From Escherichia phage JoYop, in sequence record OR769032.1: a stretch of DNA of 64,000 bases; one strand, given 5' to 3'. The position numbers and the translations under genes were made by a program. Below, piece by piece: positions 7,128 to 59,369 of the stretch (positions are counted from its first letter, which is position 1; every line of letters begins with the position of its first letter). The notes beneath the pieces are model-generated. The model was not told where the DNA came from. It made no database searches and saw only the letters and a program-made list of their open reading frames with translations.

Positions 7128-8531
<1,404 letters not shown>

Positions 8532-11576: not shown

Positions 11577-11581
11577 ACTCC

Positions 11582-12760
11582 TTAAAAATATTTTTTAAAA
11601 CTCATCATAACTTTATCATCAACATCATTATCAATCTGTGCTACAAGGTAAGATGACAGTTCTACTTCTTGTGGTGCAGATTGAACATTATCAGAATTAA
11701 GATATTCACGAATCCAAGGATATGGATGTTTAACCGGAGCATCGGTAATTGGGCATGGAAGACCACACTGTTTCATACGAGATACAGTTAAGTAATCAAT
11801 AAAGCTCCACATGCTATTTGTATTTAATCCAGGAACGTCTCCATCTTTAAATAAATGAACTGCCCAGTCTTTTTCTTGGCGGTTAACTTCCATGAAAATA
11901 TCAACCGCTTCTTGTTCGCATTCTTTAGCAATTTTAACCCATTCATCACCGTCTGTTCCAAGTTGAAGTTGACGAATAATATATTGAGTGCCCTTAAGGT
12001 GTAGTTGTTCATCGCGAGCAATGAACTTCATAATCTTGGCATTACCTTCCATGATTTCCATATTCTTGTGAAAGTTAAAGGTGCATGCGAAAGATACGTA
12101 AAAACGAATAGCTTCTAAGGCATTAATAACGTGCAAACAGAGGTAAAGAGATTTCATTAGCTCACGCTTCCAATATGTCTCATGCTCAATAGCATCTTCA
12201 ATAACGTCTTCGTCTGCATTAATTTCTTTTTGGTATTCGATATCAGCTTTAGCGTTTTCCCAATAACGAGTTTTAACCAGAACATCATCATAATAGCGAC
12301 CGATAGATTCAGCACGTTTCATAATAGCTTCATCTAATACAATCTCATCAAACACCTTCGATGGATCAGTATAAAGATTTCGCATGATATGAGTATATGA
12401 ACGACTGTGAATAGTTTCACTAAAAGTCCATGTAGCAACCCATGTATCAAGGCTTGGGTCTGAAATTAATGACATAAGTACAGCAGATGGTGCACGACCC
12501 TGAATGCTATCTAGAAGTGATTGATACTTCAGGTTATTAGTAAAAATATTTTGCTGATACTGAGGAAGTTTATTAAATTGTGCAGCATCCATCATTAAGT
12601 TTACTTCTTCAGGCCGCCAGAAAAATGACAATTGCTTTTCGGTCAAATCTTCAAAAACTTTATGGCGTTGAATATCATAACGCGCAATACCAAGACCTGA
12701 ACCAAAAAACATCGGTTCTTTTAAAACATCAACTGGATTTGTATTAAAAACTGTGCTCAT
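11582..12760 (-). CDS. nrdB: ribonucleotide reductase small subunit, uninterrupted
   Basis: 392 aa continuous ORF with di-iron ligand regions; no intron. Confidence 0.93.
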   Translation of the reverse strand: MSTVFNTNPVDVLKEPMFFGSGLGIARYDIQRHKVFEDLTEKQLSFFWRPEEVNLMMDAAQFNKLPQYQQNIFTNNLKYQSLLDSIQGRAPSAVLMSLISDPSLDTWVATWTFSETIHSRSYTHIMRNLYTDPSKVFDEIVLDEAIMKRAESIGRYYDDVLVKTRYWENAKADIEYQKEINADEDVIEDAIEHETYWKRELMKSLYLCLHVINALEAIRFYVSFACTFNFHKNMEIMEGNAKIMKFIARDEQLHLKGTQYIIRQLQLGTDGDEWVKIAKECEQEAVDIFMEVNRQEKDWAVHLFKDGDVPGLNTNSMWSFIDYLTVSRMKQCGLPCPITDAPVKHPYPWIREYLNSDNVQSAPQEVELSSYLVAQIDNDVDDKVMMSFKKYF

Positions 12761-13490
12761 AAATTTTCCTCTTTAAAATTCTGCCGTGTTTCCAACCTGG
12801 CGGTATAATATCATCTTTACCTATAAGCGTGCATTCACTTCCATTATTAATCCATTTCTTACCGCGGATTCCTTTATAATCTCTTGGTTTTATTTTGTCA
12901 AACTTTGCATCAAGTTGATATGACCATCTAAATCCATAAGCATATTGAAATTTACCCTCGGCACAATATTTGATATTTGACCCGTTTCCATTAACTGACC
13001 GGGACGCTGCCGCAATAGAGTGAAAGGTTTCTATGAAATCTCCATCTAATGAGAATTTATGTATTTCTACAGATGGGCACGCATATCTATTCACGTTAGA
13101 TACATGCTGTTTAGTTTCGTTTTTATGATGCTTACCTAGCATCCCTTTAGGATGAGGATTATTTTTCCAATATTTCTTAAAGAACTCAGAATTAGCTTTA
13201 GCAAATAATTTTCTGTGTAAGCTGTACAATCTGTTATTAATTCTATTGCCAGCTTTATCTGTTGCCATTAACGTTAACGCAGAGGCAAGACCAAAATGGC
13301 CTTCATTTATCTTACATAGTAATAGATGAGCTATAAAATGTTCTCTGGCTGTTAATTCAACTAAATTTTCCTTATCATCAGAACCTCCCATACATTTAGG
13401 GATTATATGATGTGTCTCTTTATATTCTAGTAAAGATTCCCGAGCCTGAGCTCGGGAAATTAGGTCGTTATAGATTTTTTGATAATTCAT
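12744..13490 (-). CDS. free-standing HNH homing endonuclease (mobE-like position)
   Basis: HNH motif THHIIPKCMGGSDDKENLVELTAREH; wedged between nrdA stop and nrdB start. Confidence 0.7.
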   Translation of the reverse strand: MNYQKIYNDLISRAQARESLLEYKETHHIIPKCMGGSDDKENLVELTAREHFIAHLLLCKINEGHFGLASALTLMATDKAGNRINNRLYSLHRKLFAKANSEFFKKYWKNNPHPKGMLGKHHKNETKQHVSNVNRYACPSVEIHKFSLDGDFIETFHSIAAASRSVNGNGSNIKYCAEGKFQYAYGFRWSYQLDAKFDKIKPRDYKGIRGKKWINNGSECTLIGKDDIIPPGWKHGRILKRKIYEHSF

Positions 13491-15754
13491 TACAATTTAC
13501 ACGCTGCGCAATCATCGGCTTTTGGAGTTTCTATTTCATAATCATCAGTACCAGAACCATCGCGGGTATTATGATAATAGAAATTTTTAATGCCATAATA
13601 CCATCCGTATAGCATGTCATCAATCATTATTGACATTGGAACCTTTCCTTTAGGGAAGATTTGGGGGTCATAATATGTATTCGCTGAAGCTGATTGACAC
13701 ACCCATTTCAGCATAATAGCTACCTGCGTAAGATACGGTTTATTACCTTTCTTAGCTAATTTCCATGTATAATCATAGAGGTCTATGTTATGTTCAATAT
13801 TGGGCACGACTTGATTAAAGGAACCCTCTTTTGACTCTTTAACAGAGACTGGTCCACGTGGAGGTTCGATACCGTTTGTACTGTTAGAAACTTGGGAAGA
13901 TGACTCACATGGCATAAGTGCTGATAATGTGCTATTACGGATGCCAAAGAGCTTAAGGTCTTCCCGCAGCGACGACCAGTCACAAACGTATTTTGGAGCT
14001 GCGATTTGGTCAATCTTTTTATTGTACCAGTCGATAGGTAATTCGCCTCGAGACCAACGAGTGTCTGAATAATATTCGCAAGGTCCTTTTTCTTTGGCGA
14101 GCTTAATGGATGCTTTAATGAGTCCATACTGTAATCTCTCAAATAGTTCATGCGTTAAATCGTTAGCATCTTCATAAGAAGCAAAGTTACTTGCTAGCCA
14201 AGCTGCATAGTTAGTAACACCTACGCCAAGATTACGACGCTTTTTAGCTTTTTCTGCTTCAGGAACTGGATATCCTTGGTAATCCAACAGATTATCAAGA
14301 GCACGAACTTGAACTTCTGCCAATTCATTAATTTTATCTTGGTCTTGCCAATCGAAGTTATCCAATACAAATGCAGATAAAGTGCATAATCCAATTTCAG
14401 CATCAGGACTATTCACATCATTTGTTGGAATAGCAATTTCACAGCACAAGTTACTCTGACGAATAGGTGCCTTTTCACGAATAAACGGCGTATAATTATT
14501 CGTGTTATCAATGAACTGTACATAAATCCTTGCTGTTCCTGAGCGTTCAGTCATGAGCAATTCAAATAGTTCACGTGCTTTAATACGCTTTTTACGAATA
14601 TTAGGGTCTTTTTCTGCTGCTTCGTATAATTCACGGAAACGGTCTTGGTCTTTAAAATAAGAATAATAAAGCTCGCCACCCATTTCATGTGGACTGAACA
14701 AAGTAATGTAATCGTTCTTTCCAAAACGTTCCATCATCAAATCATTCAGCTGAACACCATAATCCATATGACGGATACGGTTTTCTTCTACGCCTTTGTT
14801 ATTTTTTAAAACGAGAAGATTTTCAACTTCCAAATGCCAAATAGGATAATAAGCAGTAGCAGCGCCGCCACGAATTCCACCCTGTGAACACGATTTAACA
14901 GCAGTCTGAAAATGTTTCCAAAAAGGAATAACACCAGTATGTCGTACTTCGCCCATACCAATCTTAGAACCTTCGGCACGAATCATACCAACGTTAATAC
15001 CAATTCCAGCGCGTTTAGAAATATATTCAACAATTGAAGCAGAAGCCTTATTGATAGACTTCAATGAATCACCTGCCTCAATAACAACACATGAACTAAA
15101 CTGTCGAGTCGGAGTACGGCAACCAGCCATAATAGGAGTTGGCAGTGAAATCTGTCGAGTAGATACTGCTTCATAAAAACGAATAACATGTTTTAATCTA
15201 TCAACAGGTTCATCTTGATGCAATGCCATTCCGATAGTCATAAATGCAAACTGTGGAGTTTCATAAATTTGACCAGTGCTTTTATCTTTAACTAAATATT
15301 TTTCTTTTAATTGCATTGCACCGGAATAAGTAAATTCCATATCCCGCTCATGCTTAATTTTTGATTCTAAAAATGTAATTTCTTCTGCAGAATATTTTGA
15401 CAATAATTCAGGGTCATATTTCCCTTCATTTACACAATAAGAAATATGGTCAATAAATGAACGCGGTTCATACTGTCCATAAACATGCTTACGAAGAGCA
15501 AACATTAAACAGCGTGCAGCTACATATTGATAATCAGGCTCTTCGACTGAAATAGAATTCGCAGCGGCCTTAATGACGATAGTCTGAATATCATCAGTTG
15601 TCATTCCATCACGGAGATAAGATTTAATATTTTCATATAATTCATAAGGATCGACTGATGTTCCTTCAGCTGCCCAAGATAAAACTTTAATAATTTTTTG
15701 CGGGTCAAAGCTCTGAGAAACACCACTACTTTTGATAACATTAATTAATTGCAT
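13490..15754 (-). CDS. nrdA: ribonucleotide reductase large subunit
   Basis: 754 aa; class Ia RNR catalytic motifs (NLCCEI, C-terminal CxxC tail). Confidence 0.95.
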   Translation of the reverse strand: MQLINVIKSSGVSQSFDPQKIIKVLSWAAEGTSVDPYELYENIKSYLRDGMTTDDIQTIVIKAAANSISVEEPDYQYVAARCLMFALRKHVYGQYEPRSFIDHISYCVNEGKYDPELLSKYSAEEITFLESKIKHERDMEFTYSGAMQLKEKYLVKDKSTGQIYETPQFAFMTIGMALHQDEPVDRLKHVIRFYEAVSTRQISLPTPIMAGCRTPTRQFSSCVVIEAGDSLKSINKASASIVEYISKRAGIGINVGMIRAEGSKIGMGEVRHTGVIPFWKHFQTAVKSCSQGGIRGGAATAYYPIWHLEVENLLVLKNNKGVEENRIRHMDYGVQLNDLMMERFGKNDYITLFSPHEMGGELYYSYFKDQDRFRELYEAAEKDPNIRKKRIKARELFELLMTERSGTARIYVQFIDNTNNYTPFIREKAPIRQSNLCCEIAIPTNDVNSPDAEIGLCTLSAFVLDNFDWQDQDKINELAEVQVRALDNLLDYQGYPVPEAEKAKKRRNLGVGVTNYAAWLASNFASYEDANDLTHELFERLQYGLIKASIKLAKEKGPCEYYSDTRWSRGELPIDWYNKKIDQIAAPKYVCDWSSLREDLKLFGIRNSTLSALMPCESSSQVSNSTNGIEPPRGPVSVKESKEGSFNQVVPNIEHNIDLYDYTWKLAKKGNKPYLTQVAIMLKWVCQSASANTYYDPQIFPKGKVPMSIMIDDMLYGWYYGIKNFYYHNTRDGSGTDDYEIETPKADDCAACKL

Positions 15755-16071
15755 AAGTCCTCAACTTGAAAATCGTCTTTAAACAATCGGTTAACTATAT
15801 GAGCTATTATATCACCATGACACGGCTTCGGTTTACATGTGCATCCTAGCCTCATTCCACGTAAAGGCTCTAAATGTGCTTTAGTTATTTCTCCGGATTT
15901 AATTCGACGTATAAAATCTTTTTTGAATAATTCAATGGCAGCCTCCCGGCTGCCAGCATCTTTACCGACGTAATTTCCCCAAAATGTACCACGGTGAATA
16001 TTAACATCAAAGTCGGATTTATATTTATTCACTACCTGGCATAGACGGCCCGCGCGGTGATAATTCGTCAT
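15745..16071 (-). CDS. hypothetical protein, 108 aa (nrdA.1 position)
   Basis: ORF track; Cys/His cluster [11 protein letters not shown]. Confidence 0.5.
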
Positions 16072-16288
16072 ATTGTTTTTCCGTTAAAACAGTAATATCA
16101 TAATAACAGTCAGAAGAAGTTTTAACTGTGGAAATTTTATTATCAAAATACTCACGAGTCATTTTATGAGTATAATATTTTTTGCCATAAATTATAATAG
16201 GCTGATTTGGTCCTGGAACTTCTAACTCGCTTGGGTTAGGAAGTGTAAAAAGAACTACACCAGAAGTATCTTTAAATCGTAAAATCAT
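16025..16288 (-). CDS. hypothetical protein, 87 aa (nrdA.2 position)
   Basis: ORF track. Confidence 0.45.
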
Positions 16289-16311
16289 ATATCCTCACAA
16301 TTAAATTAAAA

Positions 16312-17172
16312 TTACACTGCCATTTTTCCTTTCAAGACACCATGGGACTGATAATCTTTGAGAACGAAATCTCGTGCTGTCATATATTCAGTTAACCAAT
16401 ACATTTGAGTTTCAGTATCGCATTGACTGAATCCATTAGGCCAATTGATACTGAGTTTACATAGGTCCATAGGGGTTCTATTTAATATCTCTTTGCATTG
16501 CACAATATGGTTAGAATAAATGTGTGTATTACCACCAGAGAATATCAAATCACCTGGAACTAGTTCACACATGTCAGCAACAATATGCAAAAGAGCAGCA
16601 TAGCTCGCGATGTTAAATGGAAGACCGAGGAAAACATCTACTGATCGTTGATACCATTGGAGGTCAAGGTATCCGTTACGAACATTAAACTGATAGAACA
16701 TATGACAAGGTGGTAATGCCATCTGCTTAAGTTCTGCCGGATTCCACGCAGAAACAATTTGGCGTCTATCATTAGGAAATGTTTTAATACGATCAATAAC
16801 TTCTACAATTTGGTCTACACCGCCAAAATCACGCCATTGTTTTCCATAAATTGGACCAAGCTCACCGCTATGATATCCTAAATCTTTTGCTTGTTTTTCG
16901 TAATTTTCATCCCAAATCGTTTTCCCTGCAATTAAAGACCCGTGAGTACGCTGACGCAGGTCATTTACGTTAGTACTTCCTGATAAGAACCACAATAACT
17001 CAGAAATACAAGCATTCCAGGCGAGCTTTTTGGTTGTTACCGCAGGAAAACCTTTAGTTAAATCCCAACGCAATTTAGTACCAAACAGAGCAATTGTTCC
17101 TGTGCCTGTTCGGTCATCGGTTTCATAGCCATTTTCAAGGATATTTTTAATTAAATCTTGGTATTGTTTCAT
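16312..17172 (-). CDS. td: thymidylate synthase, uninterrupted
   Basis: 286 aa continuous; TS active-site region ALPPCH present; AGGTG RBS. Confidence 0.95.
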   Translation of the reverse strand: MKQYQDLIKNILENGYETDDRTGTGTIALFGTKLRWDLTKGFPAVTTKKLAWNACISELLWFLSGSTNVNDLRQRTHGSLIAGKTIWDENYEKQAKDLGYHSGELGPIYGKQWRDFGGVDQIVEVIDRIKTFPNDRRQIVSAWNPAELKQMALPPCHMFYQFNVRNGYLDLQWYQRSVDVFLGLPFNIASYAALLHIVADMCELVPGDLIFSGGNTHIYSNHIVQCKEILNRTPMDLCKLSINWPNGFSQCDTETQMYWLTEYMTARDFVLKDYQSHGVLKGKMAV

Positions 17173-17185
17173 TTAGCACCTATAA

Positions 17186-18143
<958 letters not shown>

Positions 18144-21497: not shown

Positions 21498-21832
21498 AGT
21501 AGAAAATCTAATGTATTAGTTTTTTCACAACGAACAACAGAAGGACGTAAAAGATTTTCGTCAATAGCTTCTGACTGAATTTTTTCAATTATACCCGAAG
21601 GAATAAATTTAGCAAATTGAGTTTCAGGAATAGAATTTTCTTCCAAGAATGCTGTTGTAGCTTCAAGATAACTCATTCCAAACTCTTCTACCATTTTTTC
21701 AATAATAAATCCATTTTCTTGACGATCAAGAAGCTTTGCTATTTCATCCTTTTCTTTCTTAATTGAAAGTTCTTTTTCTGAAAGACCGGTCTCATCGACC
21801 GGACGAATATCATTTAGAGAAAACTGTGTCAT
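21494..21832 (-). CDS. 33: late transcription co-activator gp33
   Basis: 112 aa from ATG at 21832 (MTQFSLNDIRPV...); track ORF has 3 extra codons. Confidence 0.9.
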   Translation of the reverse strand: MTQFSLNDIRPVDETGLSEKELSIKKEKDEIAKLLDRQENGFIIEKMVEEFGMSYLEATTAFLEENSIPETQFAKFIPSGIIEKIQSEAIDENLLRPSVVRCEKTNTLDFLL

Positions 21833-22079
21833 AAAGTTCAACTACCTCTTCAGTTTCAGCTTCAAACACATCACGATTATCTTTATGATACAAAGCTAAT
21901 AGACGATTAAACATCTTACCATCAACACCAAGTTCATCTTTGGCACGAATTCGAATATCTTTAATCAATTCATTATAACCAGAAATTTTCAGTTTATGAT
22001 CAGATGCTTCTTTAATAAATTTAGCCAAGTCTTCGCCATGGATAGCTTCATCAAATTCAACCATTTCTTTTTTAGCCAT
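21810..22079 (-). CDS. dsbA: double-stranded DNA-binding protein DsbA
   Basis: 89 aa, MAKKEMVEFDEAIHGEDLAKFIK... recognised as T4 DsbA. Confidence 0.9.
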   Translation of the reverse strand: MAKKEMVEFDEAIHGEDLAKFIKEASDHKLKISGYNELIKDIRIRAKDELGVDGKMFNRLLALYHKDNRDVFEAETEEVVELYDTVFSK

Positions 22080-22087
22080 TATTCACC

Positions 22088-23082
22088 TCAAAATTCATTA
22101 ATGCTATTAGTTAATTTAGAAAGACCCGCTTTTACAAAATATGAATAAATTTTGCCACGCGGTGGTAATTTATATGAATTATAGTAATTCACAATGTTTG
22201 AAGCAATATTATCAGGAATATAATCAAAATCAATTAGAACTAGATTTTCTTTATAACGATTATATTCAGATTCTGTGAGAAGCACCTTAGCTTGTTCACG
22301 GTCATTAGCAATAGCTTCAACGATTGAAGTTTTCATTGAAGGGGTTCGTTCACCTTCAACTCTTGTAAACCAAAAGTCAGATCGTACTTTAACTGAAGCA
22401 ACGTTATCCTTTTTGTCACCTTTAAGGATTTTAGTCATACAGTCAATTTCAGCAGAACCGCTTTTAATTTTAACCCATTTCTTGTGCATCGGTGACCATT
22501 GCTTAACATTTGGGTATTTATGAAGTTGAGTAAAGTCACCATCAGATGAAATGATTAAAATCTTATGTCCTTCTAAAGAGAACTTTTTAACCAAAACAGC
22601 AATATGGTCATCTGCTTCATACTTATCAATATCCATAACGATGTATGGCATATAAGCTTTCAATTCATCTATAACTTTATGGCTGGATTCAAAATAACCT
22701 TCCCAGTCCCAAGTAGGATGTATGGCATATAAGCTTTCAATTCATCTATAACTTTATGGCTGGATTCAAAATAACCTTCCCAGTCCCAAGTAGATTCTTC
22801 TCGTGCTTTTCCGCGGTTTTTCTTGTAATAATAGGCGAAATCACGACGCCAATATCCCGATTTCGCGTTATCGATACACAGTACGATTTTAGTGTATCCA
22901 AGAGTTTTTGCTTTTTTGACATTAAACTTAATTGAGTTCAATATCAAATGACGAACCATTGATAAATTAATTTTTTCTTTATCTGGGAAGTTTACTAAAG
23001 CAGTTGAAAGTGCGATTTGACTAAAGTCAATTAAGCAGATTCCTTCTTTGTAATCTTCATCCAGCATCATTTCTAAATCCAT
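22088..23082 (-). pseudogene. rnh: RNase H (rnh) disrupted by a 77-bp tandem duplication; two ORF fragments
   Basis: Track ORFs 22669..23097 (N-terminal part ending ...AYMPYILLGTGKVILNPAIKL*) and 22088..22663 (TTG start, ...AYMPYIVMDIDK...) together equal T4 RNase H; removing one 77-bp copy restores a 305-codon ORF. Confidence 0.85.
22640..22793. repeat. perfect 77-bp direct tandem duplication (2 copies) inside rnh
   Basis: 22640..22716 and 22717..22793 are identical base for base. Confidence 0.95.
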
Positions 23083-23111
23083 ATGAACCTCGTTCAATTA
23101 GTGAGATTTCT

Positions 23112-23186: not shown

Positions 23187-26100
23187 ATGGCCGAGATTAA
23201 AAGAAAGTTCAGAGCAGAAGATGGTCTGGACGCAGGTGGTGATAAAATAATCAACGTAGCTTTAGCTGATCGTACCGTAGGAACTGACGGTGTTAACGTT
23301 GATTACTTAATTCAAGAAAATACAGTTCAACAATACGATCCAACTCGTGGATATTTAAAAGATTTTGTAATCATTTATGATAACCGCTTTTGGGCTGCTA
23401 TAAATGATATTCCAAAACCAGCAGGAGCTTTTAATAGCGGACGCTGGAGAGCATTACGTACGGACGCAAACTGGATTACGGTTTCATCTGGTTCATATCA
23501 ATTAAAATCCGGTGAAGCAATTTCGGTTAACACTGCAGCTGGTAATGACATCACGTTTACTTTACCATCTTCTCCAATTGATGGTGATACTATCGTTCTC
23601 CAAGATATTGGAGGAAAACCTGGAGTTAACCAAGTTTTAATTGCAGCTTCAGTACAAAGTATTGTAAACTTTAGAGGTGAACAAGTACGTTCAGTACTAA
23701 TGACTCATCCAAAGTCACAGCTAGTTTTAATTTTTAGTAATCGTCTGTGGCAAATGTACGTTGCTGATTATAGCAGAGAAGCTGTAATTGTAACACCAGC
23801 GAATACTTATCAAGCGCAATCTAACGATTTTATCGTGCGTAGATTTACTTCCGCTGCGCCGATTAATATTAAACTTCCGAGATTTGCTAATCATGGCGAT
23901 ATTATTAATTTCGTTGATTTGGATAAATTAAATCCACTTTATCATACAATTGTTACTACATACGATGAAACTACTTCAATACAAGAAGATGGAACTCATT
24001 CTATTGAAGGCCGTACATCGATAGATGGTTTCTTGATGTTTGATGATAATGAGAAACTGTGGAGATTGTTTGATGGCGATAGCAAAGCACGTTTACGTAT
24101 TATAACAACTAATTCAAATATTCGTCCAAATGAAGAAGTTATGGTATTTGGAGCGAATAACGGAACAACCCAAACAATTGAGCTTCAGCTTCCAACTAAT
24201 ATTTCTGTTGGTGATACTGTTAAAATTTCCATGAATTACATGAGAAAAGGACAAACAGTTAAAATCAAAGCTGCCGGTGAAGATAAAATTGCTTCTTCAG
24301 TTCAATTGCTGCAATTTCCAAAACGTTCAGAATATCCACCTGAAGCTGAATGGGTTACAGTCCAAGAATTAGTTTTTAACGGTGAAACTAATTATGTTCC
24401 AGTTTTGGAGCTTGCTTACATTGAAGACTCTGATGGAAAATACTGGGTTGTACAACAAAACGTTCCTACTGTGGAAAGAGTAGATTCTTTAAATGATTCA
24501 ACTAGAGCAAGATTAGGCGTAATTGCTTTAGCTACACAAGCTCAAGCAAATGTCGATTTAGAAAATTCTCCACAAAAAGAATTAGCAATTACTCCAGAAA
24601 CATTAGCTAACCGTACTGCTACAGAAACTCGTAGAGGTATCGCAAGAATAGCAACTACTGCTCAAGTGAATCAGAACACCACATTCTCTTTTGCTGATGA
24701 TATTATCATTACTCCTAAAAAGCTGAATGAAAGAACTGCTACAGAAACTCGTAGAGGTGTTGCTGAAATTGCTACGCAACAGGAAACTAATGCAGGTACT
24801 GATGATACTACAATCATCACTCCTAAAAAGCTTCAAGCTCGTCAGGGTTCTGAATCATTATCTGGTATTGTAACCTTTGTATCTACCGCAGGAGCTACTC
24901 CAGCTTCTAGTCGTGAATTAAATGGTACAAACGTTTATAATAAAAACACTAATAATTTAGTTGTTTCGCCTAAAGCTTTGGATCAGTATAAAGCTACTCC
25001 AACGCAACAAGGTGCAGTAATTTTAGCGGTTGAAAGTGAAGTAATTGCTGGAAAAAGTCAAGAAGGATGGGCAAATGCTGTTGTAACGCCAGAAACGTTA
25101 CATAAAAAGACATCAACTGATGGAAGAATTGGTTTAATTGAAATTGCTACACAAAGTGAAGTTAATACAGGAACTGATTATACTCGTGCAGTCACTCCTA
25201 AAACTTTAAATGACCGTATAGCAACTGAAAGTTTAAGTGGTATAGCTGAAATTGCTACACAAGTTGAATTCGACGCAGGCGTCGACGATACTCGTATCTC
25301 TACACCATTAAAAATTAAAACCAGATTTAATAGTACTGATCGTACTTCTGTTGTTGCTCTATCTGGATTAGTTGAATCAGGAACTCTCTGGGACCATTAT
25401 ACCCTTAATATTCTTGAAGCAAATGAGACGCAACGTGGTACACTTCGTGTGGCTACACAAGTTGAAGCTGCTGCTGGAAAATTGGATAATGTTTTAATAA
25501 CTCCTAAAAAGCTTTTAGGTACTAAATCTACCGAATCGCAAGAAGGTGTTATTAAAGTTGCAACTCAGTCTGAAACTGTGACTGGAACATCAGCAAATAC
25601 TGCTGTATCTCCAAAAAATTTAAAATGGATTGTACAGAGTGAACCTACCTGGGCAGCTACTACTGCGGTAAGAGGTTTTGTTAAAACTTCATCTGGTTCA
25701 ATTACATTCGTTGGTAATGATACAGTTGGTTCAACACAGTCGTTAGAATTATACGAGAAAAATAGCTATGCAGTATCACCATATGAATTAAACCGTGTAC
25801 TCGCTAACTATTTGCCATTAAAAGCAAAAGCTGCTGACGCAAATTTATTAGATGGCCTAGATTCATCCCAGTTCATTCGTAGGGATATTGCACAGACGGT
25901 TAATGGTTCACTAACCTTAACCCAGCAAACGAATCTGAGTGCCCCTCTTGTATCATCTAGTACTGCTACGTTTGGCGGATCAGTTTCAGCAAACAGCACA
26001 TTAACTATTTCTAATACTGGAACTATGACGCCCCGTATCGTTTTCGAAAAAGGTCCTGCATCTGGGGCAAATCCTGCACAGTCAATGAGTATTCGTGTAT

Positions 26101-28919: not shown

Positions 28920-31900
28920 ATGGCTACTTTAAAACAAATACAATTTAAAAGAAGCAAAACCGCAGGTGCACGTCCTGCTGCTTCAGTATTAGCCGAAGGT
29001 GAATTGGCTATAAACTTAAAAGATAGAACAATTTTTACTAAAGACGATTTAGGAAATATCATTGATCTGGGTTTTGCTAAAGGCGGGCAGGTTGATGGAA
29101 ATATCACTCAAACTGGTGATTATTTACAAAATGGAACATATAATCTTAATGGAAACCAGTTTGTTTATGCAGGAAAATATATTGAATTTTTACCTAAAAC
29201 AGCTGGTAATGGCGCTTGGGCAAATCAACACCTAAATAAAGCCCCTATCTTTACAGATTTAAGTTCAGCTACTTCTACTTCAGAATACCATCCGCTAATT
29301 AAGCAGCGTTATAAAGATGGAACTTTTTCTGTTGGTACGTTAGTAAATGAAGGAAGTTTTAAAATTCAATATATCAATGAATCTGGTGATTCAAAATATT
29401 GGACTTTTAATCGAAACGGTAGTTTTATTGTAGATAATGGCAGTATTGAAGTCCGTGCAGGTAATATTTCGGCTTCAGGTAATATTAACTCGGCAACCGG
29501 ATTTGTTTCTGCACCGCGCGTCAATACAAAAAATATTAACCTGAGTTCTAAAAAATTTATACCGAATAATGACGAGGGTTATGACATTGTTTCTTTACCT
29601 ACTTGGATTTATAATCCACCAGCAGATGGTTCTGACCGTGATACAAACGGATTGAACTACATGCGTAAAATGCGGGCTTCAAATACTTCTAGCATTTTCC
29701 ATGAAATTGTCGATTGCCGAAAAGGTAAGCCACAAGAAATTTCTTGGTGGACTGGTGTTGGGCCTTCTTCTTTCCAGTGGGCGTTTGATACCTCCGGGCG
29801 TATTACTGCAGGTAAATCAATTTCTGTAGGTCTTCCTGATAATGGTTCAAATGGACGTTATCCTTTAGATTCTGCCATTTCTATTGGTATTGCAATTGGT
29901 GATAACGACACCGGTATTAAATGGGTCCGCGACGGTGTTATTGATTTCATGGCTAACGGTATTTCATCCGCTACCATTTTGAATAACGGTATTAACAGCA
30001 CTAAGAAATTGATGGTCGGTTATAGCCGCGATTCTGGTACTACTTGGGATTACCCAAATAACAACCAAGCAATGTTTACTGCGCGTACCGATGTTGATGG
30101 TAATAATAATGGCGATGGACAGACTCATATCGGTTATAGCAGCAACGCTAAGATGTATCACTATTTCCGTGGTACAGGTCGTATGTCCGTTAATATGGGC
30201 GATGGACTTCTTGTTGAGCCTGGCATTTTAGATATTAAAACCGGTTCAAATTCGTTAAATTTGCGCGCTGATGGTACCATTGCTTCTGTTCAAACATTAA
30301 AACTTAATAATGGATTATATTTTAATGGTGATGGAACTAATGCTTCTCTAGTTTTTAAAGCCGCTTCAGGTATTGATGGCACTAAGCAAATCATGTGGGA
30401 AGGCGGTACTCGACCAGGTCAGAATAAGAGTTATGTAACTGTTAAAGCATGGGGTAATTCATTTAACGCCACTGGCGATAAATCTCGTGAAACCGTATTT
30501 GAAGTCTCTGATGGACAAGGTTGGTATTTCTACACTCAACGCCTGGCTCCAACTGATTCTGGAACCATAGGTCGTGTTACAACTTACTTCAATGGTGAGC
30601 TTCGTTCTAAAGGAAACCTAATAAGCGAAGGAAGTCTTGAAGTTGATGGAACAAGCACACTAGCCGGTAATGTTACTATGTCTAACGGTTTGTTTGTTCA
30701 AGGTGGTTCTTCTATTACTGGACAAGCTAAATTTGGTGGAACGGCAGATGCATTAAGAATTTGGAATGCTGAATATGGTGCTATTTTCCGTCGTTCAGAA
30801 GCATCATTGCATATTATTCCGACCCCTAAAGATGCCGGTGAAAGCGGTGGAATAAGTAATCTCCGTCCACTTAGTATCAGCCTTAATAACGGTATGGTGC
30901 AAATGCGTCATTCTGTCACATTAGGTGATGATGGCAGAGGCGGAAATATGGTTACCGTAGACAACGATAATAAACTTGTTGTTGTTACTAGTAATAGTCG
31001 TATTTCTCCTAATTACCGTATGCAAATAGGTCAGTCAGCATATATTGATGTTGAATGCACTGACAGCGTTCGTCCAGCGGGTGCAGGTTCTTTTGCTTCC
31101 CAGAATAATGAAAACGTACGCGCACCATTCTATATGAATATTGACCGTACAGACAATAGCACTTATGTTCCAATTTTGAAGCAGAGATATGTACAAGGAA
31201 ACAGCTGTTACTCTATTGGAACCTTAATTAATGGTGGTAACTTTAGAGTTCATTATCATGAAGGTGGAGACGGAAGCTCATCAGGCGCAATTATAAAAGA
31301 TTTAGGATGGGAATTTACGCGTTCTGGCGATTTTATATCTCCTAAGCGTGTTTCTGCCGGGGGTTCAGTTTATTTAGGTACAGATGGTAACATTACTGGC
31401 GGTTCAGGAAACTTTGCTAACTTGAACACTACTTTAGACCGTAAAGTAACTACCGGCTGGATTAATTATTCTGTTGATAGCGGTTGGTATAAATTGGCAA
31501 CAGTAACTATGCCTCAAGGTGTGGCTACAGTTCAATTTAAAATTACTGGTGGTTCTGGATTTAACGTTGGTACTTTTAGACAAGCAACAATTAATGAAAT
31601 TGTATTGCGTTCAGGTAATAACAGCCCTAAAGGAATTAATGGTGTTTTATGGCAACGCGAAACAGATGCTATTAAAGATATTGCGTATATTAATACCTCA
31701 GGCGATGAGTATGATGTTTATATTAATTGTGGCACTTATTTAAATAGACTTACCTTAGAATATAGCACTTCAGAAAACGCTTCAGTAGTAGTTCATGGAT
31801 TATATGGGCCTACACAATCACCAGTAGAAGAGCTTCCTGTAGATACTGTTAAAGGTCGTGTTTTTAAACTTCTTAATAATAGCTCAGGCGTTTTTGATGC

Positions 31901-32885
31901 AGGTAGTTCTAATATTTCTACAAATGCAACTTTTGTGGCAAATACTACTATAGGATTCCGTCACAAATCTAACGGCGACGAAAGTGGCTCTGCAGCTGCT
32001 CTGTTTTATAATGATGGTACTACGTTCCATATATTATTAACAGATAAAAATACCGATACTGATAAAACTAAAGCCTCTGGTTCTTATAATAGCTTGAGAC
32101 CTTTTTCTATCAATATTGCTTCTGGTAAAGTAACTATTTCAAACTCTATGAGCGTTTCTGGGGTATCAGAGTTTTATAATGGACTTAACATCAAAAATAA
32201 TGGAAGTATTAACTTTGATAAGTCTGGCGCTAACCCGAGAAATATGAGAATATTTCATGCTGGTGATGCTTCTCGCGGTAACCGTATTGAAATTGCTGAT
32301 GAAACTAACTATATTGCTTACTTTGAAAAAACTCCAGGTGGAGCTAACCGCTTTGTAGTAAATAATGCTACTGTGGATGGTGTTAATCAAATGAATTCAT
32401 TTGGTATTAATATCAATAACGCACTTGGTGGAAATAGTATAGCATTTGGTGATAATGATACTGGAATTAAACAATCTGGTGACGGAATTCTCGATATCAT
32501 TACTAACGCCGCACGCCGAATGAGATTCCAAACAGGTGACACCTATTCTGACATGAATATAAACGCCCCAAACGTTTATATTCGTTCTGATATTCGTTTG
32601 AAATCTAATTTCAGACCTATTGAAAATGCTCTTGAAAAGGTTGAACAGCTTGATGGTTTAATCTATGATAAAGCTGACTATATAGGCGGTGAACCTGTTC
32701 AAACAGAAGCAGGTATTATAGCTCAAACGTTGCAAGACGTTTTACCTGAAGCAGTTCGTGAAGTTGAAGATATTAAGGGTAATAAAATACTCACTGTTTC
32801 TTCTCAATCCCAGATTGCTCTTCTGGTTGAAGCTGTGAAAACACTTTCTGCTCGTGTAAAAGAACTTGAATCTAAACTTATGTAA
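28920..32885 (+). CDS. 37: long tail fibre distal subunit gp37 (T2-type, with C-terminal intramolecular chaperone-like domain)
   Basis: 1321 aa; C-terminal ~110 aa begins SDIRLKSN..., resembling the S74-type auto-cleaving chaperone motif. Confidence 0.9.
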   Translation: MATLKQIQFKRSKTAGARPAASVLAEGELAINLKDRTIFTKDDLGNIIDLGFAKGGQVDGNITQTGDYLQNGTYNLNGNQFVYAGKYIEFLPKTAGNGAWANQHLNKAPIFTDLSSATSTSEYHPLIKQRYKDGTFSVGTLVNEGSFKIQYINESGDSKYWTFNRNGSFIVDNGSIEVRAGNISASGNINSATGFVSAPRVNTKNINLSSKKFIPNNDEGYDIVSLPTWIYNPPADGSDRDTNGLNYMRKMRASNTSSIFHEIVDCRKGKPQEISWWTGVGPSSFQWAFDTSGRITAGKSISVGLPDNGSNGRYPLDSAISIGIAIGDNDTGIKWVRDGVIDFMANGISSATILNNGINSTKKLMVGYSRDSGTTWDYPNNNQAMFTARTDVDGNNNGDGQTHIGYSSNAKMYHYFRGTGRMSVNMGDGLLVEPGILDIKTGSNSLNLRADGTIASVQTLKLNNGLYFNGDGTNASLVFKAASGIDGTKQIMWEGGTRPGQNKSYVTVKAWGNSFNATGDKSRETVFEVSDGQGWYFYTQRLAPTDSGTIGRVTTYFNGELRSKGNLISEGSLEVDGTSTLAGNVTMSNGLFVQGGSSITGQAKFGGTADALRIWNAEYGAIFRRSEASLHIIPTPKDAGESGGISNLRPLSISLNNGMVQMRHSVTLGDDGRGGNMVTVDNDNKLVVVTSNSRISPNYRMQIGQSAYIDVECTDSVRPAGAGSFASQNNENVRAPFYMNIDRTDNSTYVPILKQRYVQGNSCYSIGTLINGGNFRVHYHEGGDGSSSGAIIKDLGWEFTRSGDFISPKRVSAGGSVYLGTDGNITGGSGNFANLNTTLDRKVTTGWINYSVDSGWYKLATVTMPQGVATVQFKITGGSGFNVGTFRQATINEIVLRSGNNSPKGINGVLWQRETDAIKDIAYINTSGDEYDVYINCGTYLNRLTLEYSTSENASVVVHGLYGPTQSPVEELPVDTVKGRVFKLLNNSSGVFDAGSSNISTNATFVANTTIGFRHKSNGDESGSAAALFYNDGTTFHILLTDKNTDTDKTKASGSYNSLRPFSINIASGKVTISNSMSVSGVSEFYNGLNIKNNGSINFDKSGANPRNMRIFHAGDASRGNRIEIADETNYIAYFEKTPGGANRFVVNNATVDGVNQMNSFGININNALGGNSIAFGDNDTGIKQSGDGILDIITNAARRMRFQTGDTYSDMNINAPNVYIRSDIRLKSNFRPIENALEKVEQLDGLIYDKADYIGGEPVQTEAGIIAQTLQDVLPEAVREVEDIKGNKILTVSSQSQIALLVEAVKTLSARVKELESKLM

Positions 32886-32887
32886 AA

Positions 32888-32903
32888 GAGGGCTTCGGCC
32901 CTC
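32888..32903 (+). promoter_or_regulatory. UUCG hairpin between genes 37 and 38
   Basis: GAGGGC-UUCG-GCCCUC just before gene 38 RBS; no clean U tract. Confidence 0.35.
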
Positions 32904-32915
32904 TAAGGATTTTTA

Positions 32916-33701
32916 ATGGCAATTGTAGGTGTTCCTGGCTGGATTGGCGAATCTGCCGTGAATGAAACTGGACAACGTTGGATGGATGCTGCGATGAAAG
33001 CTGTTCGTGTTTCAGTTCCTGGTTGGATGAGCTCAATGGCTGGACAATCTAAAGAAGTATATTACAGCATTGGTGCTAGTAATTCTTATAATAAAGACAC
33101 GCTAATAAATTGGATAAAAGCTCAAGGAAGTACTCCTGTTGTTATTACAATTACAGGAAATATTGTTTCTCAATCTACTGGTGTTCCATGCTTAGATTTT
33201 CCTAGCTCATTAACTAATGCATACGTGACACTTAATATCAATTCAGGTGTATATGTTTGGGGCCGTGGCGGGAATGGCGGAAATAACTCTGCCGGTGGAG
33301 CAGGAGGAACTGCAATAAATAATGGAATTGGAACTAGATTGCGTATTAACAACAATGGTGTTATCGCAGGCGGTGGTGGCGGTGGCGGTGGTGGGTATTA
33401 TTCTCCTACGCCACAAATGAAATTAACCTTTGGTGGTGGTGGCGGTCGTCCGTTTGGTGCTGCTGGTGGATCTGCCAACATGCAATCAGGCGCAACTGCT
33501 GGTACTATTTCCGCGCCAGGTAAAGGGTCTGTCAACGGTGTCTATAATGGCGGAAACGGCGGTGATGCTGGTGCCGCAGGTGGTAAATGTAATATTCGTG
33601 GTCAAGGATCAGAATATAACGGCGGTGCGGCTGGTAAAGCTGTTACTGGTAATGCTCCAACTTGGACTAAAGTTGGTACAATATATGGTGCAAGAGTATA
33701 A
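32916..33701 (+). CDS. 38: receptor-recognising adhesin gp38 (T2-type)
   Basis: 261 aa; five glycine-rich motifs including a run of nine Gly, separated by variable segments. Confidence 0.88.
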   Translation: MAIVGVPGWIGESAVNETGQRWMDAAMKAVRVSVPGWMSSMAGQSKEVYYSIGASNSYNKDTLINWIKAQGSTPVVITITGNIVSQSTGVPCLDFPSSLTNAYVTLNINSGVYVWGRGGNGGNNSAGGAGGTAINNGIGTRLRINNNGVIAGGGGGGGGGYYSPTPQMKLTFGGGGGRPFGAAGGSANMQSGATAGTISAPGKGSVNGVYNGGNGGDAGAAGGKCNIRGQGSEYNGGAAGKAVTGNAPTWTKVGTIYGARV

Positions 33702-33731
33702 TTTGAATAAATATCCTTAAAAGGAGGGTCT

Positions 33732-34388
33732 ATGGCAGCACCTAGAATATCATTTTCGCCCTCTGATATTCTATTTGGTGTTCTAGATCGCTTGTTCAAA
33801 GATAACGCTACCGGGAAAGTTCTTGCTTCCCGGGTAGCTGTCGTAATTCTTTTATTTATGATGGCGATTGTTTGGTATAGGGGAGATAGTTTCTTTGAGT
33901 ACTATAAGCAATCAAAGTATGAAACATACAGTGAAATTATTGAAAAGGAAAGAAATGCACGCTTTGAATCTGTCGCCCTGGAACAACTCCAGATAGTTCA
34001 TATATCATCTGAGGCAGACTTTAGTGCGGTGTATTCTTTCCGCCCTAAAAACTTAAACTATTTTGTTGATATTATAGCATACGAAGGAAAATTACCTTCA
34101 ACAATAAGTGAAAAATCACTTGGAGGATATCCTATTGATAAAACTATGGATGAATATACAGTTCATTTAAATGGACGTCATTATTATTCCAACTCAAAAT
34201 TTGCTTTTTTACCAACTAAAAAGCCTACTCCCGAAATAAATTACATGTACAGTTGTCCATATTTCAATTTGGATAATATCTATGCTGGAACAATAACCAT
34301 GTACTGGTATAGAAATGATCATATAAGTAATGACCGCCTTGAATCAATATGTTCTCAGGCGGCCAGAATATTAGGAAGGGCTAAATAA
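33732..34388 (+). CDS. t: holin
   Basis: 218 aa; N-terminal transmembrane segment then large periplasmic domain; matches T4 holin T. Confidence 0.93.
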   Translation: MAAPRISFSPSDILFGVLDRLFKDNATGKVLASRVAVVILLFMMAIVWYRGDSFFEYYKQSKYETYSEIIEKERNARFESVALEQLQIVHISSEADFSAVYSFRPKNLNYFVDIIAYEGKLPSTISEKSLGGYPIDKTMDEYTVHLNGRHYYSNSKFAFLPTKKPTPEINYMYSCPYFNLDNIYAGTITMYWYRNDHISNDRLESICSQAARILGRAK

Positions 34389-45290: not shown

Positions 45291-47111
45291 CTACTGGCTC
45301 ATCCATTCTTTGCGAAGGTCAGCATTATCTCCCATGAGCATTTCAAAAAGCTCTTTCCAATTCTCAGGAAGTTTAACAACATCATATACTGGATTTTGAA
45401 TCATCTCACGATATTCAGATTTTTCCAAAGAGCCAAGTCCTTTAATATAACGGATGCTATGTTTAGGTAGAGCATCTTTGGCACTCTCATATTCAGCGAC
45501 TGTATAAAACCATTCTTGTTTTTTACCGACCTGAGCGATGATTACAGGAGTTTTGACAAAGCGAATTCTTCCTTGTTCAAACAGTTCTGGCCAATTACTA
45601 AAAAATCCGAGCAGAGAAGGATAAATGCTTCCTAGACCATCATGGTCAGCATCAGTCATAATAGCAATATTACGATAATTCAAGTTTTCAGCTTTTTCAC
45701 CAAGAACTAGACCAGTGATTGCGCAAATATCAAATAGTTCTTTGTTTTTAAGCATATCGGCATATGACATACCCCAGCTATTAAGAACTTTACCACGCAA
45801 CGGATAACCACCATGAAGTTCTTTATCGCGAACATCAATAAGATATCCGATAGCAGAATCGCCTTCGGTTAAGAACAACGTAGTGTCAGCATCTTTACCA
45901 CAAAGATTCGCTTTAATATGTTTATGAACCTTAGCTTTAGAAGCCTTTTTAGCTGCTTTAGTTTCTGCTGCTTTTTCTGCCGCCAATTTACGAGCTAATG
46001 CTGCTTCAATAATTGGCATTAAAATTGCTTCATTATTTAGAATAGCGCGTGAAATCTTTTTAGCATCAAGTTGAATATGACTACGGATTTCACCAAATGG
46101 AGAAGTCAAACGCTCTTTAGTTTGAGAATCAAATCGCATGTTTTTCATATCACGAACAAACATAACGATAGTCAAACATTCTTTAACACGTGCTTTAGTT
46201 ACATCAATTTTGAACTTACGTTTGATTTGTGGAATAAGGTCTTCGCAAATATCATCCATAACACAATCAATGTGATGGCCACCATTCTTAGTGTGAATGT
46301 TATTCACGTAAGTTAATTGACGAAAACCATCCGGTGAACGACCAACCGCAATAGAACAATTTTCTTGCTCTTGAACGATAGCGTGTTCATCATATTGGCG
46401 TGCATATTTCTTAAAATTACCCTGAACCTTTTTACCATTAAAGGTAAATTGAATATCAGGATAAACTACAGCAAGAGTCTGGAGACGATCTAGTGTAATG
46501 TCAAGATAAACTTGGGATAACTCATTAGTTTCAAATGACATAAAATCAGGAATGAAAGTAACACGAGTTCCTTTCCATTTTCCAGGAATATCTTCCCATG
46601 ATTTATTTTCCATGCCATTTGAACAACGAACTACAATATTATTTTGACCATCACCAGTTTCACCGACAAACATCACAGAAAAAATGTTTGTTAAACTAGA
46701 ACCAACACCGTTCATACCACCGGTGACGCGTTCTTTATCATCACCGAAGTTACCACCTGCTTTTGGAATAGTCCATGCAGCAACAGGACCAGGAATTTCT
46801 TCACCGGTAGGTGTTTTAACCATCGCTTGTGGAATACCGCGACCGTTATCTTCAACTGTTACTTGATTGTTTTTAATAGTAACATTAATTTTATTCGCGA
46901 ATTTAAACTTAGTACGAATACCTTCATCTACTGAGTTATCGATAATTTCATCAATAAGCTTAACAAGACCAGGTACATACTGAACACTTTCCCATTTACC
47001 AAACAGAAAGCGCTCATGCATTTCATTAGCTGAAGAGCCAATGTACATGCCGCTACGCTTTTTGATATGTTCAATATCGCTCAGAATTTTAATTTCATTC
47101 TTAATCATCAC
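45291..47111 (-). CDS. 39: topoisomerase II large (ATPase) subunit, single uninterrupted ORF
   Basis: 606 aa with GyrB-type ATPase and Toprim motifs. Confidence 0.93.
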   Translation of the reverse strand: MMIKNEIKILSDIEHIKKRSGMYIGSSANEMHERFLFGKWESVQYVPGLVKLIDEIIDNSVDEGIRTKFKFANKINVTIKNNQVTVEDNGRGIPQAMVKTPTGEEIPGPVAAWTIPKAGGNFGDDKERVTGGMNGVGSSLTNIFSVMFVGETGDGQNNIVVRCSNGMENKSWEDIPGKWKGTRVTFIPDFMSFETNELSQVYLDITLDRLQTLAVVYPDIQFTFNGKKVQGNFKKYARQYDEHAIVQEQENCSIAVGRSPDGFRQLTYVNNIHTKNGGHHIDCVMDDICEDLIPQIKRKFKIDVTKARVKECLTIVMFVRDMKNMRFDSQTKERLTSPFGEIRSHIQLDAKKISRAILNNEAILMPIIEAALARKLAAEKAAETKAAKKASKAKVHKHIKANLCGKDADTTLFLTEGDSAIGYLIDVRDKELHGGYPLRGKVLNSWGMSYADMLKNKELFDICAITGLVLGEKAENLNYRNIAIMTDADHDGLGSIYPSLLGFFSNWPELFEQGRIRFVKTPVIIAQVGKKQEWFYTVAEYESAKDALPKHSIRYIKGLGSLEKSEYREMIQNPVYDVVKLPENWKELFEMLMGDNADLRKEWMSQ

Positions 47112-58177: not shown

Positions 58178-58387
58178 TTAAATTACATGATTATTTATAA
58201 TAAATTCTCGCGGAACGTTAAAATACCCGATTTTAGTTAATATAACAACATCGCCGTTAATGATTACCGGAGAATAATCTTCTGGAGCATTAAATTTCCA
58301 ATGGGCTCTAATATTATATCCATCAGAACCAAATGCTCGAGTAGCCGGTCTCCCGGCTTTTTGCCATGCGTAGAAATCAAATTTCAT
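58178..58387 (-). CDS. hypothetical protein, 69 aa (soc.1-like position)
   Basis: ORF track; occupies the slot where I recall T4 carrying segF. Confidence 0.45.
   Translation of the reverse strand: MKFDFYAWQKAGRPATRAFGSDGYNIRAHWKFNAPEDYSPVIINGDVVILTKIGYFNVPREFIINNHVI
58192..58199 (-). promoter_or_regulatory. late promoter TATAAATA for soc
   Basis: Minus strand TATAAATAATC about 30 nt upstream of soc ATG. Confidence 0.65.
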
Positions 58388-58578
58388 TTTGAATGCTCTA
58401 TAATTAATTTTAAAGCTTCTTCACTGACATAAATTTCGTCATGACCTTCTGTAACTTCAACCATACGAAGCTGATTAGTTAAGAGCTCACATACGAGCCC
58501 TTTGTCATAATCTTTAAATAGCTGGTCAATACGTTTCTTGTGGGCTTTCTTAAGCTGGCGTTTATTTAAACGAGCCAT
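58384..58578 (-). CDS. hypothetical protein, 64 aa (soc.2-like position)
   Basis: ORF track. Confidence 0.45.
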   Translation of the reverse strand: MARLNKRQLKKAHKKRIDQLFKDYDKGLVCELLTNQLRMVEVTEGHDEIYVSEEALKLIIEHSK

Positions 58579-59096
58579 TAATAACCTCGGTCTTGACGAG
58601 CGAAGTTTTCAGCATTTTTCAGATAATAAAGTTTAAAGATTTCTTCAGCTGACATTCCAAGAGCAATGAATTTATTCATGAAAAAGTGAAATTGGTCAAT
58701 AAGTTCAAATTTAATTTCAAGCTGATCTTCGGGAGATAAATCTTGAATTTTTTTGGATTGCATTTCAGAATAACGTTTCTTCCAAGGTTTCCATACAGCA
58801 GAAGCTTCTTTTTCACCATTACTCATACCGCCAAGAGAAGTATATAGCTCGCGAGTTTCGTCTGCGATATAATCGTCTTGGTTTCGCAACCAAGCAAGAA
58901 CTTCTCCCGCAGTTTCAAGTGAATCGGGATGACGATTTGTTTCTGGTTTATCGTTAGCCAAACGAATCTGTAAATGCCGTTGCATATCAAGCATAACCTG
59001 CAGTGGGTCAATATTGTGCATAATATTCTCAGCATATGCACGATTTGCTTTATCAACACCTTCGATCAAATGAGCACATTCATTAAAGTAAGCCAT
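58578..59096 (-). CDS. 56: dCTP pyrophosphatase (dCTPase) gp56
   Basis: 172 aa; MazG-like; matches T4 gp56 at both ends. Confidence 0.88.
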   Translation of the reverse strand: MAYFNECAHLIEGVDKANRAYAENIMHNIDPLQVMLDMQRHLQIRLANDKPETNRHPDSLETAGEVLAWLRNQDDYIADETRELYTSLGGMSNGEKEASAVWKPWKKRYSEMQSKKIQDLSPEDQLEIKFELIDQFHFFMNKFIALGMSAEEIFKLYYLKNAENFARQDRGY

Positions 59097-59168: not shown

Positions 59169-59369
59169 ATGGTACAAAAATTAATGGCACTTGTCAATGC
59201 CATAAAAGGTAATAAAAAGCGTATAGCTTTTACTATTTCTGCTATGGTAGGAATTTTACTCTGGAACTTTATTTTATCACCAATTGCAATTGCGCATGGT
59301 GTTAATATTCCAGTAGTTACTCTTGATACATTCGTAGATTTAGCATTTGCTCTAGTTGGGCTAATTTAA
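59169..59369 (+). CDS. small hydrophobic protein, 66 aa, on opposite strand to all neighbours
   Basis: AAGGAGG RBS 4 nt before ATG; two predicted hydrophobic segments; stop overlaps stop of gene 61. Confidence 0.4.
   Translation: MVQKLMALVNAIKGNKKRIAFTISAMVGILLWNFILSPIAIAHGVNIPVVTLDTFVDLAFALVGLI

Follow-up and report, generated by a model that had tools for sequence, protein, structure and literature searches.

A perfect 77-bp tandem duplication interrupting rnh in the genome record of Escherichia phage JoYop is very probably an untrimmed assembly overlap

Introduction

T4-type genomes are circularly permuted, and SPAdes v3.13, an assembler applied to such a genome in the present case, has the same default k series as SPAdes v4.0.0. 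For 150-bp reads this series is stated for v4.0.0 as 21, 33, 55 and 77 (PMC12222747). Repeats of length k at the two ends of SPAdes contigs built from circular templates are a documented artefact, and in one instance a repeat of 55 bp turned into one of 77 bp once k = 77 was used (PMC13631441). [quoted passage not shown] The copies of a SPAdes overlap are usually located at the ends of a linear record, where they mimic a short terminal repeat.

T4 RNase H is a 5'-3' exonuclease of the FEN-1/RAD2 family with entries in the structure database (PDB 1TFR, 2IHN). It is encoded by rnh, for which the note of the T4T record lists das as a synonym. The roles of metal ligands and other active-site residues referred to below are taken from PMC3012046. 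Deletion mutants of T4 rnh are characterised laboratory alleles (Hobbs and Nossal 1996), and rnh-minus T4 is described as viable, with the 5'-3' exonuclease of E. coli DNA polymerase I (Pol I) substituting for the phage enzyme, where that work is cited in PMC3012046.

Here we analyse a continuous stretch of 64,000 nucleotides from the sequence record of Escherichia phage JoYop (OR769032.1), referred to as the window. It derives from a Tequatrovirus and keeps the collinear order of T4 through the rIIB/rIIA map origin. A preliminary description, made from the letters of the window, had reported a perfect 77-bp tandem duplication that frameshifts rnh and had proposed either a genuine loss-of-function mutation or an artefact of assembly or sequencing.

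Results

The rnh gene in the JoYop record contains two identical head-to-tail copies of a 77-bp unit. Direct comparison of positions 22640..22716 (copy 1) and 22717..22793 (copy 2) shows 77/77 identical bases and Tandem Repeats Finder (TRF) reports 2.0 copies with a period of 77, 100% matches and a score of 308, confirming the identity of the two segments claimed previously. The unit starts with GATGTATGG and ends with CAAGTAG. Copy 1 is the promoter-distal copy in the orientation of rnh and holds the ATG at 22651 that serves as the GenBank start of a 187-aa 'RNaseH'. Copy 2 corresponds to rnh nucleotides 290-366, that is, codons 97-122. The copies meet between 22716 and 22717, and the 37-mer across this junction is CCTTCCCAGTCCCAAGTAGGATGTATGGCATATAAGC. 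A base-by-base comparison of the edges of the duplication yielded 0 bases of microhomology on either side; the base 5' of copy 1 is not the one that ends the unit, nor is the base 3' of copy 2 the one that begins it. The repeat is the sole perfect tandem duplication in the 64-kb window for scanned units of 20-399 bases, and also the sole perfect direct repeat of at least 40 bases. An exact repeat of 77 bases cannot be due to chance. A weak 21-bp tandem repeat with 2 copies and 85% matches (TRF score 57) is found at 8486..8525 in the pseT / pseT.1 region. The window also holds a dispersed repeat family of five copies of about 78 nt each with 65-100% identity (19708, 37133, 40259, 40746 and 48918). 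Its core reads ...GATAGTTGTATAGTACCA...GTAAAC... and in the minus-strand reading resembles the early-promoter regions of T4.

A unit of 77 bp is not divisible by 3, and the duplication therefore breaks the reading frame of rnh. As written, the gene extends over 995 nt (22088..23082, minus strand), equal to 918 + 77, and its frame leaves the native sequence after residue 122, which bears out the frameshift reported in the preliminary description. The N-terminal fragment (22669..23082, minus strand) encodes 137 aa, made up of native residues 1-122, including D19, D71 and R79, and a 15-aa out-of-frame tail, LLGTGKVILNPAIKL, that ends at a stop codon. This fragment had been described as 142 codons long. 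The fragment and its stop are confirmed in the sequence, but the earlier count begins at an upstream TTG (ORF 22669..23097, 142 aa), whereas the native ATG at 23082 sits 5 codons inside this TTG, is preceded by a GAGG Shine-Dalgarno sequence and gives 137 aa. The rest of rnh opens only at the internal TTG at 22663 (191 aa), which had been recognised before, or at an ATG at 22651 (187 aa). The ORF starting at this ATG (22088..22651, minus strand) covers native residues 119-305 with D132, D155, D157, D197 and D200 and is deposited as WPJ67580.1. An exact look-up of the 137-aa N-terminal fragment in public collections did not find it as an annotated protein.

Deletion of one copy in silico restores a 918-nt ORF of 305 codons, as had been anticipated, whose protein product is 100% identical to T4 RNase H. 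An exact-sequence look-up of the repaired protein returned RNH_BPT4, and the alignment to T4 rnh, suggested earlier as a check, shows identity over 305 residues. At the DNA level, repaired rnh and its T4 counterpart differ at 28 nucleotides in 27 codons, all of them synonymous (0 non-synonymous), with only 1 of the 28 differences located inside the 77-base unit. That every differing codon is synonymous shows that rnh has remained under purifying selection until now. Pfam assigns the 5_3_exonuc_N (PF02739) and RNaseH_C (PF09293) domains to the repaired protein. When the fragments are submitted separately, the N-terminal one gives no Pfam match and the C-terminal one matches the tail of the exonuclease domain and RNaseH_C only. 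Repaired RNase H retains D19, D71, D132, D155, D157 and D200, and the split after residue 122 divides the active site of the gene as written, with the metal ligands D19 and D71 as well as R79 in the N-terminal fragment and D132, D155, D157 and D200 in the C-terminal fragment. Taken at face value, the sequence would thus specify a dead RNase H enzyme.

Searches among relatives recover one copy of the unit. A search with 1201 bases surrounding the repeat gave matches in 500 Tequatrovirus records, with identities of 95-99%, and each of the 40 matches listed of these 500 spans 1124 bp of the 1201-bp query, corresponding to one copy. In a megablast search with a junction 60-mer against 50,697 phage records, all 488 matching records map two pieces of the query onto a single copy. 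The junction 37-mer does not occur in the viral, metagenome and genome contig collections searched. Among the records of relatives, the rnh region of Escherichia phage HY03 (KR269718.1) is labelled 'putative terminase DNA packaging enzyme large subunit', apparently an annotation slip.

The conserved genes in the remainder of the window are intact. The window was compared with the translations of about 105 annotated T4 genes that span its extent. All conserved genes in this set are full length and in one frame without stops, except for rnh and for gene 40, which is cut by the end of the window. The other incomplete or missing T4 genes belong to the known mobile or variable set, namely homing endonucleases, the gp37/38 adhesin cassette, dam, cd.5, 61.2 and the end of 61.4. 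uvsX is located beyond the window end, and gene 39 forms one ORF together with the part that is gene 60 in T4. Within the 64-kb window, rnh is therefore the only damaged core gene and the assembly is otherwise clean. The neighbourhood of rnh keeps its T4 position, with dsb at 21813-22079 (minus strand), rnh at 22088-23082 (minus strand) and gene 34 at 23187-27059 on the opposite, plus strand. An Rfam scan of the window at gathering thresholds returned nothing.

Several other loci differ from T4. Gene 39, encoding the topoisomerase II large subunit, is a single uninterrupted ORF of 606 codons (45291..47111, minus strand). T4 gp39 aligns over residues 1-473 only and the JoYop ORF then runs through the part encoded by T4 gene 60. 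Since gene 39 is without the mobA homing-endonuclease insertion, the split gene 60 of T4 and the 50-nt bypass in its translation are lacking. A homologue of T4 Dam methyltransferase was not found in the window by tblastn, and gene 56 (58578..59096, minus strand; 69% identical to T4 gp56) is separated by only 72 bp from dam.1 (59169..59369, plus strand), at the place held by dam in T4. Where T4 has segF, the window has two small ORFs of 64 and 69 aa (58178..58578). At 28920..33732 (plus strand), T4 gp37 aligns over residues 1-803 only, roughly 50% of them identical, and the window contains no match to T4 gp38; the distal tail-fibre/adhesin cassette is therefore of a non-T4 type. I-TevI (td), I-TevIII (nrdB), segG, segF and cd.5 also have no match in the window, the relevant span for I-TevI, I-TevIII, segG and cd.5 being 11578..18140. 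A MobE-like stretch at 13176..13490 is partial and 61% identical. Most T4 mobile endonuclease genes are, as judged by these comparisons, absent from 11578..18140.

The interruption of rnh is already present in the deposited record. The 187-aa ORF starting at the ATG at 22651 was identified by exact look-up as WPJ67580.1, 'RNaseH [Escherichia phage JoYop]', and the 1290-aa product of the adjoining gene 34 is WPJ67581.1 of the same phage, whose record is 169,193 bp long. GenBank OR769032 annotates rnh at this position solely as the 187-aa C-terminal part, and the break was therefore not made by cutting out the window. In addition, the locus tags of rIIB and rIIA are cm3_109 and cm3_110 (PMC10927641) and only 27 T4 CDS lie between gene 34 and rIIB, so that some 80 genes precede rnh in the record and the duplication is in its interior. 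A wrapped circular record, or a duplication introduced into the window, was considered and rejected on the basis of the deposited 187-aa fragment and the position of rnh about 80 genes in. The consecutive accessions WPJ67580 and WPJ67581 were dropped as proof of adjacency, given that the accessions of Carena, a phage genome from the same submission, run by protein length and not by position. According to the genome paper, JoYop was sequenced on an Illumina NextSeq 2000 with 2x151-bp reads at 1,741x coverage (SRA run SRR27213192) and assembled by SPAdes 3.13.0 with default parameters, with Ray and Geneious also used; SPAdes and Ray 'gave the same contig' (PMC10927641). The gene count in this paper is inconsistent, with 246 predicted genes in the abstract and 276 in the text (PMC10927641).

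Discussion

We conclude that the 77-bp duplication is very probably an untrimmed SPAdes end overlap in OR769032 and represents a database error and not a mutation of the phage. Of the two possibilities raised in the preliminary description, the artefact is now strongly favoured, with the unit length equal to a final k of 77 and k-length overlaps documented for this assembler. Because T4-like genomes are circularly permuted, a de Bruijn assembler sees a cycle, and SPAdes prints this cycle as a linear contig in which the first k bases equal the last k bases. Under default settings the series of k values ends at 77 for 2x151-bp reads, and the unit length matches this final k as documented for the assembler and read length used for JoYop. 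We infer that the ends of the JoYop contig fell inside rnh and that the contig was circularised and re-opened elsewhere with one copy of the overlap left untrimmed, which would place the two copies head to tail. On this reading, the contig ends would have been joined between 22716 and 22717. As the cut point of a contig is arbitrary, 0 bases of microhomology are as expected, and the finding of just one perfect tandem duplication with a unit of at least 20 bp in the 64-kb window agrees with a single junction in each assembly.

The two copies are adjacent and internal to the record, and a re-opening step is documented only indirectly, through the Carena record. The Carena record begins at the first base of the holin CDS, and the authors of JoYop therefore did re-open at least one assembly. 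No leftover duplication of 77 bp or another k-sized length was found in this sister genome, and a failure of trimming would therefore not be systematic. The idea that JoYop was rotated to match its closest named relative, ADUt, is unsupported, ADUt being in the opposite orientation. Counting against an untrimmed overlap is the report that two assemblers gave the same contig, which, read literally, would mean that a second assembler with a different k also produced the duplication. Comparisons of contigs, however, usually ignore the start point and terminal overlaps (compare PMC5923482). Overall, an untrimmed overlap needs just one common curation slip.

Compared with known systems, the duplication resembles the SPAdes k-overlap artefact in its length, equal to the final k, in the identity of the copies, in its arbitrary site without microhomology, in occurring only once, as judged from the 64-kb window, and in a genome that maps as a circle through T4-like headful packaging. 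In contrast to the usual overlap with copies at the ends of a linear record, the JoYop copies are adjacent and internal, so that an extra step of joining and re-opening is needed and a gene is broken as a side effect. The repaired gene is the counterpart of T4 rnh, sharing the 305-residue protein, both Pfam domains and the dsbA-rnh-gene 34 neighbourhood. The deposited version departs from T4 rnh in its broken ORF, of which the annotation covers residues 119-305 alone. In all likelihood there is nothing biologically new at this locus. The gene is an ordinary T4 rnh and the repeat fits a known type of assembler footprint, whose one unusual trait is an internal position that disguises it as a frameshift.

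A genuine 77-bp duplication fixed in the JoYop stock would shift the frame after codon 122 and abolish RNase H, leaving the removal of Okazaki primers to the 5'-3' exonuclease of host DNA polymerase I. We consider this improbable. Since an rnh-null phage is viable on polA+ hosts (PMC3012046), a real lesion is biologically permissible. The agreement between SPAdes and Ray (PMC10927641) and the clean Carena record would also be in keeping with a real duplication. JoYop would then be the natural counterpart of the viable rnh-null laboratory mutants as they are cited in PMC3012046, although those mutants are characterised alleles and the JoYop lesion is known from its deposited sequence alone. A real duplication would, however, match the final k of the assembler by coincidence only. 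Spontaneous duplications usually show microhomology at their boundaries, which is not obligatory, and the boundaries observed here are blunt. The copies have not diverged, their junction is missing from the 488 phage records and from viral, metagenome and genome contigs, and damage in the window is confined to rnh. Given 0 non-synonymous against 27 synonymous codon differences, any inactivation of rnh would need to be extremely recent, and the duplication would need to have become fixed during plaque purification in spite of a likely loss of fitness.

Some other human or software edit, for example overlapping contigs from SPAdes and Ray merged by hand, or a sequence-editor step for scaffolding or to 'circularise' that concatenated the overlap in place of merging it, would be expected to have the same outcome, a perfect head-to-tail copy without microhomology, and the pipeline did include two assemblers and Geneious (PMC10927641). 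This would be a variant of the untrimmed overlap, as the length of 77 bp would still come from the SPAdes k overlap, the default k of Ray being much shorter, and as a separate explanation we regard it as highly improbable. A functional arrangement, with RNase H naturally split into two polypeptides or produced by programmed frameshifting, draws on the observation that both fragments are ORFs and overlap by native residues 119-122. Neither the TTG at 22663 nor the ATG at 22651 is preceded by a Shine-Dalgarno sequence, in contrast to the GAGG ahead of the native start. The break lies inside the N-terminal domain of the 5'-3' exonuclease, the N-terminal fragment by itself matches no family and the active site is shared out between the fragments. 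The arrangement is absent among the relatives matched, and the duplicated segment is identical at the nucleotide level with no sign of adaptation. On the grounds of absent ribosome-binding sites, a divided active site and no similar relative, we reject a split or recoded gene as vanishingly unlikely.

If the duplication is an untrimmed overlap, OR769032 is 77 bp too long, the genome shrinks from 169,193 bp to 169,116 bp and rnh is one intact gene of 305 codons. The value of this result is limited to data quality, namely the correction of OR769032. As deposited, the record would then act as a false positive when phage genomes are mined for pseudogenes, for gene loss in the replication module or for tandem duplications. 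In phage assemblies from short reads, any perfect direct repeat of 55, 77, 99 or 127 bp, at the ends or in the interior, is best regarded as an assembler footprint unless reads prove it genuine. In the improbable event of a real duplication, JoYop would represent a natural rnh-null Tequatrovirus from Abidjan wastewater that depends on Pol I for the removal of Okazaki primers. As a separate observation on database entries, some entries for Enterococcus faecalis (WP_411416595.1, WP_411402465.1) and Salmonella enterica (EFS3288642.1) are proteins that match T4 RNase H exactly or almost exactly. The contigs encoding them are 1.6-24 kb long and probably represent contaminating T4-like phage DNA in bacterial assemblies.
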